DNA of 64,000 nucleotides from Eledone cirrhosa (GCA_964016885.1 OZ024744.1:16802001-16866000); one strand, 5' to 3'; shown: positions 11,482-36,484, counted from the first letter of the stretch. Numbers and translations: made by a program. The notes: generated by a model from the sequence alone, not told the origin.

Positions 11482-11590
11482 TCTATCTTTCTATCTATCT
11501 ATCTATCTATCTATCTATCTATCTATCTATCTATCTATCTATCTATCTATCTATCTATCTATCTATCTATCTATCTATCTATCTATCTAT
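11482..11590. repeat. (ATCT)n microsatellite at the left edge of the Tx1 array
   Basis: About 25 perfect units, not preceded by a LINE 3' end. Further tracts at 11908-11936, 17771-17838, 20401-20523, 26228-26312, 32179-32226 (degenerate) and 35896-35946. Confidence 0.95.
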
Positions 11591-11907
11591 CCAGCAAGTT
11601 TTATGAAAGGTGGGTGAAAGTGGCGAGAATGGCCCGAGTGAATGGGCCTTCTCTCTATATCAGCCTGTAGGTTGAGGAAAAGGAGGAGGAGAGGAAAGGA
11701 GTACAAGCTCTTCGTACTCCTGGAGATGAGGGTTGCACATTTTTTTCGGGGGTCTGTGTTACCCATATAAACTGTCTCCCTCTATTGGGGAAAATCGACT
11801 AACTTTTAAATTCCATCTGTGATAACATTTTACACGTTTTTATTGTATGTAAACTTCCCCCTTTGTATTTGTCCCCTTCTTTTGTGCCCCTGTGGCTAAT
11901 AAAGAAA
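11591..11907 (+). mobile_element. Tx1-like LINE copy A (heavily 5'-truncated)
   Basis: Near-identical to the ORF2 end and 3' UTR of copy E (31862-32178); ends AATAAAGAAA. Confidence 0.9.
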
Positions 11908-12179
11908 TATATCTATCTATCTATCTATCTATCTATAATCTAGCTGTAATCTAGCTGTCGTCTGTTCTACAGTGTGGATGTAATTCACTTCGCGCAGAAG
12001 TTTTGTTCAAATTTATTGCGGAAATTTTGTGAGTTCAAATTTAATTTTGATACAATTGTGTAGTTTGACCCCCCGTCTGAACTGTCAGGCGGTGGGTCAG
12101 CTCATCTTTACCCCTCCTAGAGGTGAAAAACCTGTTTTAAAAAATTTTGTGGCAAAAAAATTTCAATCGTCTAACAGAA

Positions 12180-32226: not shown

Positions 32227-35200
32227 ACACAACTCTATTTCAACCAATATGGCGAATTTACGAGTAGGATGTCTTTTATGCGCGTGGCCTGCGCATGCCC
32301 TGAAAATAGGGTCAACTTTAAAATGACCTCGGTCACACCGTATAGATGTGATAGATGTCAGTGAGTCCTAGATTCACGACAAACAGCAGTTAACCCCCAT
32401 ACTCGACAACTTCCACTAAGCTGTCAGCCAGGATGTAGAGTGGGAGTTGCTGTAGTGTTTCGGGAAAACCCGGTTCTTGAAATACAGACAATCTTCTTGG
32501 ACACGGAGGTGGTCCTAGACGTGAATGGTAGTGAAAGTGGAGCTTTCAGACTGGTGGTCGTATATGCCTCGACTAGGACATCGCCGCCGGAGTTCTTTGA
32601 GCGTCTGGAATATTTTCTGGGAACGTCTTGCTCTTTACTGTTATCGGGGGACTGGAATGGTATTTTAGACCCACGTTTGTTTGTTTTTTCGACTATGTAG
32701 GAGCTTGTGATAATAGAGTGGGGTGTAACAGCCTCAAAAATCTCATCAGGAAATTCCAACTGGCTGATAGATATCGGCTAGATTTCCCAAGTGCACCACT
32801 GTGGACGTGGAGCAACCACAATGGCTCTTCTAGATCGTATTTAGATAGATTTCTAATTAGACAAATTGATAGGGAAACGTTAAGCTGTCCACAAATGCAC
32901 ATGGTTGCCTATTCAGACCACAAATTAGTGACCTGCGTAGTCAAACTTGATAGAACACATAGACAGCAGGGACAAGGATACTGGAAGCTAAACATTTCAT
33001 TCCAACGCGTAAAGATTATAGTAAACAGATTAGCACTTTAGTTAAACGCCAGTTGACGGGGCCCATCGTTAACAATAGATGGTGTTACTCTCTCAAGGGA
33101 GCAATTAGAGTAGAATCGATAGCCTTTAGCAAGGAAGTAACTTTAGAGAAGAACAAAATAGAAAAAAATTGGTAGCCAAAGTAGAAAAGGTTCTTAGAAA
33201 TGGCAGTACAGCTACCGTGCTAGCAGCGAGAACGGCACTAGACCAGTTCTTCAATGTGAAACACGAAGGTTGTATTGTCAGAAGTAGAACACGTGCTCTG
33301 AGAAACGAAGGAGCCAAAGTTGTTAGCTGGACCCGAGTGGCAGAGGCGAAAAGTGGCAACAAATCCACAATTCAGTCTTTGAAAGACCAAGACGGACGCG
33401 TACTACTTGAATCCAAGCAGATGTGCATGGTTTTCCAGCAGCACTTTGCACAACCTTTCGATCAGAGTGGTGTGCCAAGCTGCGGGACGGACTTCAGTCC
33501 CTACCACGACAGCCTACTGTGACTCTCGAACATGGATGCAGGGAGCTGCGAAAGGCCGATCACAGCGGGCGAATTAGAAGACGCCCTATGCCACTGTGGG
33601 AAATGTAAGCCACCCGGTCTAGATTGTCTACCCTATGAGTTTTACATAGGCATGACAGACTTGTTCCCTGGCGTCCTCGAAGCCGTCTACTGCAATTGGC
33701 AGCAGAACGGGAGAATTCCCAGTTCTGCAGGCAAGGGCGTAGTAACGCTGATCAGGAAAGACGAGAACAAGGGGGACGAAATTAACAACTTCAGGCCCAT
33801 AACTCTGCTCAACATAGAGTTAAAGATATTGGCCAAGGTGCTAGCGACGAGGTTGGCGCTTGTCGTCAAGAACCTGGTAGGGAAAGCGCAAACGTGTGCA
33901 ATCCCGACCAGACCATACACGACAACCTCCACCTCATGCGATACATCATAGAGAGGGTGCGTAGTAAACCCGGCTTCGGTGGGGCTCTGATCAATTTGGA
34001 TCAGTCTAAGGCATTCGATAGGGTCGACCATCGATACTTGGAAGCGGTTCTCAAGGCGGCCGGTTTCGGTCCCGTTTTCAGAGGCTGGGTCGAGGCGATG
34101 CACACCAGAATCTACTCGGCAGTCAAGGTGAACGTCTACCGTCCGGAGTCGTTCGCAATCACGCGTTCCATTCGACAGGGGTGCCCTCTCTTCTCCATTC
34201 TGTATGTATTGACTCTAGAGCCACTACTGCGGAAATTGGAGCTGTTGCAGGGCGCCCCTCTAGAACCGGGACTGCGTAAAGCGGCGTCGGCTTATGCCGA
34301 CGACGTGGCGGTAATGGTGTCGTGCACCTCGGAAATCGGGGTGATCAGCAACTTACTGAAAGAATACGAAACGCTGACGGGAGCAAAACTAAACCCGGAC
34401 AAATCTGTCGGTTTGCAACTCGGTACGTGGAGAGGCAAACCGATGACGTCCGACAGCGTCGTTGGACGCTGGACGGACGGAGCGGTGAAATTGCTCTGGG
34501 TCTGGTTCAGTCCAGACCTCCAGGTGGAGAAAAACTGGAACAAGGTCACGGCCAAGGTGTTTGCACTCATCCAGAAGTGGGCAGAGTGCAAACTGTCCTT
34601 GTAAGGTCGAGCAGGGGTGGCGAACATTTTCATAGCTTCCGTCATCTACTACCGCTTGACTGTCGTGTCTTGTCCCCGTGAACACCTTGCCAAGATGGAA
34701 CGCATGCTCTTCCAGTTTCTGTAGAAGAAGCAGGCTCCGCTGGTGAGGAGATCCATTTGCTGCCAGCACCCTTCCAACGGAGGGGTGGGAATGCCGTGGC
34801 TGATGATGCGCAAACATGCGCTGAGGCTGCGGCATCTCCAGTTATTCCTCACCTACCCCCAACCGGTGTGAGCACCGTTTGTGAGGCAGGCTTTCCCACA
34901 GCTTGTCTCGCTGACAGAGCTGCAGTCCTGGGTCAAGAAAATACCGAAAACGATGGGCGCCTGGCACATTGAATGCGCTCAGGCGCTCACAGTCCTCTGG
35001 CAAGCGGGCGCAGCAATCAGTGGAGACTCCACTTCGACATTCTATACAGGGATTGTACGTTACACGGGCGACGACGTGCTCGGAAGGACTCTGGGCGTCG
35101 AAGACGATGAGCCCACCAGTCTGTTTGGTAGGACTTTCCGCCCGGGACCTATGGACAACTTCCGGAGGTCCCTGGCCTGGCATTGCTACCGAGAAGCTCT

Positions 35201-35896
35201 ACCGATTCGTGACAAGATCTACAGGCACGGACGCCCCGGCACGGATCCTTCCAAGAGGACGGGTCCAAGATGCTCGCAGGACATTGAAACAGTCCTGCAC
35301 GCAATTGTTCACTGCCCGGGCGTAACCGACCTGTGTCGCGTATGGGACAAATCCAGTTGACTGCCGAGTCCATAGTAAGGATCAAACCGCCAGCCACTTT
35401 CAAAAACGAAAGAGAGGCGGTTTTCCTCTGTACAGTGGCTATGGTGAAAGAAGTTATATGGTGGACGAGATTGAGAGGACTGAGGATAGATGCCTTTCTC
35501 TCCGGGCAACAATTGATTCCCTTATTTAAGTATCACTTTAGAAGGAGAATCAGAGTGGAGAGAGAGGCACTGCACCTCAGTAAATTTACTGAAAGGTGGG
35601 TGAATGAAGCGAAAATGGCCCGAGGGATTGGGCCTTCTCTGTTTATAAGCCTATAAGTTGAAGAAGAGAGCAAAAGGAAGAAAGGAACACTTGAACAACA
35701 CGCTCCTGGAGTTGAGGGTTGTTCTAGCACCACAAATGGGTTATAAACAACCCATTTGTGGCGCTTCCCCCCTATTGGGGATTTCGATTGTTGTAATTGT
35801 TTGTTTTTATATTTTTTTACACGACTGCATGTAAAATCCCCGGCATGTCTTTGTATTGTCCCCTTTTCTTGTGCGCCCTTGTGGCAAATAAAGAAA
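32227..35896 (+). mobile_element. Tx1-like LINE copy F (ORF2 only, decayed)
   Basis: Starts just before the ORF2 ATG (32249); EN/RT motifs as above to stop 35656; ends AATAAAGAAA 35887-35896. Confidence 0.9.
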
Positions 35897-36484
35897 TCTA
35901 TCTATCTATCTATCTATCTATCTATCTATCTATCTATCTATCTATCTTTCGGTATTGTTTTCTCTTTCTCTTATCTCTTCCTCATTCTGAATTAGTAATA
36001 GAAATATCTCCCAAATGTGATGAAGATACCTTTTCTGTACTCAGCATTGTAGAAGATATCTAAAAAATGAAATAAACTCATGTTTAAAGCAATAATAATA
36101 TGAAATATAATCATGGTTATAATAGAAATATATGTCTCCAATACATATGCAAATATCGTTGATCATACTCAGTTATGAATGACAATGGATTTGCACTTAC
36201 AAAATACTTCTCCAAGACACAAGCCCAGGCAGAGTTGTGTTTATGGAAGACCAGCAGTCGCCCATACATACCAGTCTCTCCTCTCTACACCACTGATGTT
36301 GTCCAAAGAAAGGTAATGGCTGCTACAGCTTGGGAACACTGTCGTCACAACACACACACAGACACACAGACACACACACACATAGACAGACACACACACA
36401 CACACACATATACACACACATACAAACACACATATACACACACATACAAACACACATATACATATATATATATATATATATATA

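Follow-up and report, generated by a model that had tools for sequence, protein, structure and literature searches.

Insertion of a probable Tx1-clade LINE lineage into (ATCT)n microsatellites of Eledone cirrhosa

An array of six LINE copies joined by (ATCT)n

The stretch of DNA considered here (hereafter the window) comprises 64,000 nucleotides of the Eledone cirrhosa genome (GCA_964016885.1 OZ024744.1:16802001-16866000) and contains, on its + strand, six copies (E1 to E6) of a long interspersed nuclear element (LINE) with an apurinic/apyrimidinic endonuclease (APE) and a reverse transcriptase (RT). The copies fill positions 11591-35896, where they are joined by (ATCT)n tracts, and all six end in AATAAAGAAA, followed after at most 3 nt by ATCT, poly(A) being absent. 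An original prediction, made from the sequence of the window, had described such a tandem array of co-oriented LINEs with 3' ends running into (ATCT)n and devoid of poly(A), and both points are confirmed. It had also assigned the copies to different subfamilies, which holds for five subfamilies but not for six, because E1 is 93% identical to E5; pairwise identities within the array are 71-93%. A Pfam search recovers RT, Exo_endo_phos and weak zf-RVT domains in the array copies, and none of the window copies has an open second reading frame (ORF2).

The array begins with a (TCTA)n tract of about 27 units (11482..11591) that has no element upstream of it but TC-rich non-element DNA, and that is likely, as first suggested, an original target. 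E1 (11591..11907) is 5'-truncated and consists of the last 315 bp of an element of the E5 subfamily. It is followed by an (ATCT)6 spacer and by a second copy of the first 11 nt of the E2 head (11910..11946; duplication at the 5' junction, 11936-11957). E2 (11947..17770) is full-length, meaning that it starts at the 5' head of the family, and represents the youngest subfamily of the array, with 98% identity to a genomic copy; its ORF1 (12180-14084) is open and encodes 634 aa with one CCHC knuckle (CX2CX4HX4C, read directly), while its ORF2 (APE-RT-CCHC, ~14118-17554) is broken by stops and frameshifts. After an imperfect (TATC)n spacer of about 20 units (17773..17852) comes E3 (17852..20400), a single copy truncated within ORF1 and bearing internal deletions of ~0.15, 0.39 and 1.7 kb. 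A (TATC)31 spacer (20403..20527) leads to E4 (20526..26225) and a (TATC)22 spacer (26228..26317) to E5 (26315..32178), both full-length with broken ORFs; the head of E5 is common to 29 other genomic copies examined. The E5/E6 spacer (32179..32226) is a degenerate mixture of ATCT, TC and AT with only two perfect ATCT units, adjoining E6. E6 itself (32227..35896), truncated near the ORF1/ORF2 border, is the most diverged copy (86% identical to a genomic full-length copy) and runs into (ATCT)13 (35896..35947), beyond which lies non-element DNA. The differing 5' truncation points of the original prediction are thus found in E1, E3 and E6, but not in the full-length E2, E4 and E5, and its statement that ATCT marks each 5' junction needs to be softened for the degenerate spacer before E6.

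ATCT flanks across the genome

The 3' ends of the subfamilies were each used to search the 3.0-Gb assembly, which yielded 564-1929 first-look candidates apiece. The best 40 candidates per subfamily were scored and 30 were cut out, the window's own copies were removed, and 48 loci were extended. This sample consists of best-scoring matches, not random ones, and favours well-preserved copies. It provides 145 3' ends and 137 visible 5' junctions (8 loci are without one), 105 of them from 5'-truncated and 32 from full-length copies. The background was taken from 200 kb of the genome, in 20 blocks of 10 kb each (loci L191-L210) that were placed at round coordinates and not chosen by similarity.

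At the 3' side, ATCT is found at +4 to +7 after GAAA in 131/145 copies and ATCTAT in 122/145, whereas a poly(A) end is seen in 0/145. At the 5' side, a 7-mer in ATCT phase lies no more than 30 nt upstream in 82 of the 105 truncated copies, as against 1.0% of background positions, and 72 have a 9-mer (0.2% of the background). The same 7-mer in the opposite orientation is found upstream of 0/105 truncated copies, and commoner repeats are not enriched there (ATGT 5/105, ATT 0/105). Full-length starts behave similarly, with the 7-mer upstream of 26/32, as do the heads recovered with the E5 5' end, 26/29 of which carry it too. In 36/137 5' junctions, the flank is the tail of an earlier copy of the family; when tail-derived flanks are dropped, 59/80 truncated copies still carry ATCT upstream. 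The original prediction would have been undone by a majority of non-ATCT 5' flanks, and such flanks are the minority whether tandem flanks are counted or not, so that its reading of the array as the work of a targeting family is supported. These proportions (82/105 at the 5' side, 131/145 at the 3' side) also lie above the 20% of flanks beyond which a Tx1 family is regarded as target-specific (PMC4494074). Open ORF2 frames of 1156 codons exist in two genomic copies of E2 type (L161, L167).

An unrelated RTE-type LINE of the window (3900-7800; APE, RT, C-terminal C2H2 fingers and a (TGTA)n end) served as a control. Its truncated copies have ATCT upstream in 0/19 cases, which demonstrates the specificity of the ATCT flanks.

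Long tracts are not needed for insertion, as indicated by short or variant targets (L272, L349, L347, L209), and no preference for one end of a tract is seen (median runs of 10 and 10 nt). (TC)n occasionally flanks copies of the lineage (L067, L078, L097, L100), TC-only flanks being a small minority. The background blocks contain five family 3' ends in two clusters, and 3 of their 11 ATCT tracts are family tails. A preference for the tails of earlier copies is not needed to explain the 36/137 tandem flanks, since that fraction is close to 3/11, small as these numbers are. In a separate observation, 9 nt matching the last bases of the family lie between two ATCT tracts on the minus strand of L199 (~5935-5960), which may represent an insertion with extreme truncation. 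Of the 20 background blocks, 5 contain fragments of the wider lineage, over ~10 kb of 200 kb, which suggests that it occupies a few percent of the genome.

Target-site duplications and the origin of the 3' repeat

Duplications can be read only where the repeat is imperfect, which leaves 20 of the 137 junction pairs informative. In these, target-site duplications of 11-21 nt start two bases after GAAA, in TATC phase, and also take in unique non-repeat sequence. No excess of repeat is present on the 3' side in 15/20 informative sites, where the downstream consensus is TATCTAT at 80-100%. Since these 15 sites hold no more repeat at the 3' side than the target had, the 3' ATCT is mostly target and not a self-made tail, in agreement with the target role first assigned to it. 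The upstream, non-duplicated side is in phase too (position -1 is C in 80% and position -2 is T in 87%), and the site can be reconstructed as (TATC)n^TATCTAT, with an ambiguity of 1 nt. Two clear duplications starting with TATCTAT were also read in the background blocks (L194, 16 nt; L209, 9 nt). The other 5/20 informative sites carry 3-8 nt of extra repeat, which may be RNA-templated or due to slippage or later mutation; such an excess is compatible with the RNA having paired in another register.

The dinucleotide after GAAA differs between subfamilies, being CA in 27/29 copies of E5, GA in 28/29 of E3 and TT in 25/29 of E4, and a mixture of TA and TC in E2 and E6. This subfamily specificity indicates that the dinucleotide is copied from the RNA. 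It is followed by T in 97% of copies, and a conserved AATAAA lies 6 nt from the junction.

Placement of the lineage

In the intact copy L167, Pfam detects Exo_endo_phos, RVT_1 and, just under the cut-off, zf-RVT; the same search returns no RNase H match, and this is the ORF2 layout that characterises Tx1 elements. The APE catalytic residues align with those of the human L1 endonuclease (EN). The 634-aa ORF1 product (CX2CX4HX4C) matches no Pfam family; look-alikes with zf-CCHC/RRM in the Atlas (0.90-0.92) offer a lead only. ORF1 proteins of the Tx1 clade have an RRM-like region and a CCHC knuckle. Residues 1-800 of ORF2 score 311 bits with a carp-linked protein and 291 bits with a coral protein annotated as TX1, as compared with 171 bits for human L1, and the best named relatives of ORF2 are proteins of Argonauta hians (64-70%), in keeping with an octopod host.

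An RT tree was built with FastTree from 75 sequences, a set without vertebrate L1 and the named Tx1L, Kibi and Koshi elements. The lineage forms one clade with a group at ~43% identity (support 1.0), placed beside vertebrate proteins annotated as YTX2/TX1 (0.90) and apart from plant and Dictyostelium L1-like elements. The larger group that holds the lineage includes two Keno-like elements flanked by U2 small nuclear RNA (snRNA) sequence, with weak deep nodes. The lineage has a long branch of its own and is ~30% identical to vertebrate Tx1-like ORF2; a metagenome scan for relatives retrieved mostly distant elements, the best segments of long matches being 22-44% identical. Membership of the Tx1 clade is thus likely, though not proven.

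Comparison with known target-specific elements

Described targets of Tx1 elements are TC, TTC, TTCC and TTTC repeats, U2 and transposons (PMC4494074), and LINEs of other clades are described at ACAY, AC and TAA repeats (PMC3812793); general context is given elsewhere (PMC8869645, PMC3747384, PMC7265360). No Tx1 element targeting ATCT/GATA or ATT was found in the literature searched, with Repbase, Dfam and the Fig. 3 labels and supplements of PMC4494074 outside its scope. Like the present lineage, Kibi on (TC)n, Koshi on (TTC)n and the crocodilian Tx1 elements on (TTCC)n/(TTTC)n are APE-type and have pyrimidine-rich microsatellite targets, as described in PMC4494074 and PMC3812793. They differ in having fish or reptile hosts, whereas the present lineage is likely octopod, with an (ATCT)n target and a sister family on (ATT)n (see below). 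The lineage does not share the (TC)n or (TTC)n target of Kibi and Koshi. What is found here is a new target within a known kind of element, the microsatellite-targeting Tx1.

Keno, a U2-targeting Tx1 element, is represented by two metagenome Tx1-like elements with poly(A) followed by U2 snRNA (L293:4675-4885 and L298:5815-5977). These have a similar two-ORF layout, with an ORF2 of ~1150 aa as in the lineage, but their poly(A) ends and separate RT-tree branch distinguish them from it, with its ATCT flanks and lack of poly(A). The target side of U2 contains TATCT. Descent from Keno through this shared core was considered and is unsupported by the RT tree: with L293 and L298 on a separate branch, the shared TATCT is no evidence for it. 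A further Tx1-like element, with an esterase-like ORF1, is followed by U1 snRNA-like sequence (L307:9202-9356), a possible U1 target.

Dong has a restriction-like endonuclease, unlike the lineage with its N-terminal APE. It belongs to the R4 clade and is reported on (TAA)n, which is the (ATT)n of the sister family, so that the repeat is shared but the clade is not (PMC3812793). Waldo and Mino, on AC-type repeats, likewise have microsatellite targets and belong to other clades (PMC3812793). In Octopus vulgaris, 80 L1-Tx1 families covering 56 Mb have been described, 13 of them recently active (PMC13282606). Judged by description and not by sequence, they probably overlap the present lineage; the main-text passages and one supplement of that paper mention no target site for them.

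A sister family flanked by (ATT)n

A genome search with an outside relative identified a sister family (L387-L456, e.g., L395 and L418), for which the best 40 matches were taken. All 40 have an open ORF2 frame of 1143-1150 codons, so that the family has at least 40 open copies, and the median divergence, obtained for 29 of them, is 0.17%, a value that suggests a family currently or very recently active. It is 71-76% identical to the ATCT subfamilies (RT 78-82%, EN 59-67%), and an ORF2 tree places it as sister to them, grouping the ATCT subfamilies with a single protein of Argonauta (support 85 and 80).

Its copies end in AATAAATGAAATC, then ATTAT, in 50/50 cases. (ATT)n precedes 19/20 of its heads, although these are full-length and could bring a leader of their own; truncated copies with a visible junction number only two (L387, L144), both after ATT. 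In 20 further loci no 5' junction was seen (19 extend past 1.8 kb and 1 has an internal junction). A target switch has probably taken place between the ATCT and ATT families. Fixed differences between them amount to 19 in 235 positions of EN, mainly near residues 47-90, 152-163 and 214-219, and to 12 in 331 of RT, the ATT side of the EN comparison being three copies.

The sister family also forms tandem arrays of its own, and older relatives with ATT-type ends are present in background blocks L198 and L205, with another relative in L196. Separately, a further repeat with the 3' end motif of the lineage runs into (ATT)n (L420, L421, L428, L431, L435, L152, L071); its upstream part has no match to the LINE references, and it is possibly a short interspersed nuclear element, or another subfamily, that the ATT family mobilises. 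Upstream of full-length copies of the control RTE element lie (ATT)n and a run of T, in some cases immediately behind a tail of the ATT family.

How the target may be chosen

The mechanism of microsatellite targeting is described as poorly understood (PMC3812793), and nicking by the endonuclease accounts for just part of the site specificity of APE-type LINEs (PMC1950540). For the array, the target, its orientation and phase, the duplications, the missing poly(A) and the inherited dinucleotide are observed. In the explanation that we consider probable, the array is a tandem pile-up produced by a two-ORF APE-RT LINE whose insertion into (ATCT)n depends on joint selection by the endonuclease and the RNA. 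The APE endonuclease would nick the GATA strand (AGATA/GAT), at a top-strand position of C^TATCTAT or CT^ATCTAT (1-nt ambiguity). The transcript would read a few units beyond AAUAAA into the flanking repeat, and the UAUCUAU of this read-through RNA would pair with the freed 3' end of the nicked strand. Reverse transcription would then begin at the dinucleotide, so that no poly(A) is copied, and a second, staggered nick up to ~21 nt downstream would yield the duplication. RNA cleavage typically occurs 10-30 nt past AAUAAA, which would leave one to six repeat units in the transcript. As each insertion would leave ATCT on both sides, later subfamilies could reuse the site, thereby giving rise to the six-copy array. 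The nick and the read-through pairing are both likely to have a share in target choice. When five 3' ends were folded as RNA, a terminal hairpin spanning the end was predicted in 4/5, though not beyond what shuffled sequences give (z -1.8 to +0.4).

Several observations weigh against joint selection. The ATCT 7-mer is missing in 23/105 truncated copies; these include two variant targets verified by duplications (L006, L349), four sites with about one unit and three interrupted copies (L226, L354, L366), the remainder being unexplained. It is also missing at 6/32 full-length starts and, because an ATCT leader can arrive together with a full-length head, as in L347, the flanks of full-length copies are weaker evidence. 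A segmental duplicate set (L159/L168/L054) was left uncollapsed in the counts. In addition, 12/19 truncated RTE copies, which end in (TGTA)n, follow (ATGT)n, their own tail repeat, and no fixed ATCT/ATT difference among the copies compared falls in the EN hairpin, the part of L1 EN that contacts DNA in the minor groove (PMC8565326).

The last two observations bear on an RNA-directed variant, in which a weakly specific endonuclease nicks at TpA and only nicks that pair with the repeat of the read-through RNA are used, so that a target switch needs just one founder landed in another repeat. The RTE copies give weight to RNA pairing, which alone may explain much, and the YAP loop, like the hairpin, lacks a fixed change. 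The L1 EN is moreover described as recognising DNA by its shape while contacting few bases (PMC8565326, PMC1950540), and 3' repeats in RNA have been linked to cleavage or priming sites (PMC6007223). On the other hand, the two families differ more in EN than in RT, though EN also diverges faster within the ATCT group; all five subfamilies have kept a single target although copies flanked by (TC)n or (AT)n could have founded new ones; and the upstream, non-duplicated side of the site is in phase. Mainly RNA-directed targeting is a possibility that we regard as doubtful. The opposite extreme, an endonuclease acting alone with an exactly defined 3' end and no read-through pairing, accommodates the zero excess of repeat in 15/20 informative sites but not the excess in the other five, the T present after the dinucleotide in 97% of the copies, or the absence of poly(A) despite a conserved AATAAA so close to the junction, and we hold it to be quite improbable. 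Finally, without any targeting, ATCT would be a self-made tail and the array a passive pile-up or tandem duplication. The tandem flanks and the background tracts that are family tails point that way, whereas ATCT upstream of 59/80 non-tandem truncated copies and unique sequence inside duplications do not. Array copies that are 71-93% identical and have different ends are not duplicates of each other, and on these and the duplication data both self-made tail and tandem duplication were rejected, leaving this account an extremely slim chance.

A broader version of events can be entertained only tentatively: an undescribed octopod Tx1 radiation would make up a few percent of the genome and be split into (ATCT)n and (ATT)n branches, the second likely active, with the target set mainly by read-through RNA pairing to the nicked repeat and less by the endonuclease. 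If RNA pairing does set the target, a LINE would inherit it from its own flank, and could change it. Two close families in one genome, with RT ~80% identical, different flanking repeats and intact ORF2 copies, constitute a natural pair for the question of target choice, and these properties make an EN-versus-RNA swap directly testable. There is also a bearing on cephalopod genome structure, since GATA tracts are in part family tails (3/11 in 200 kb) and some GATA markers may for this reason be multicopy or insertion-prone.

Another feature of the window

Downstream of the LINE array, the window contains a satellite array with a 60-bp unit (41865-63422), in ~360 copies with 86% matches.

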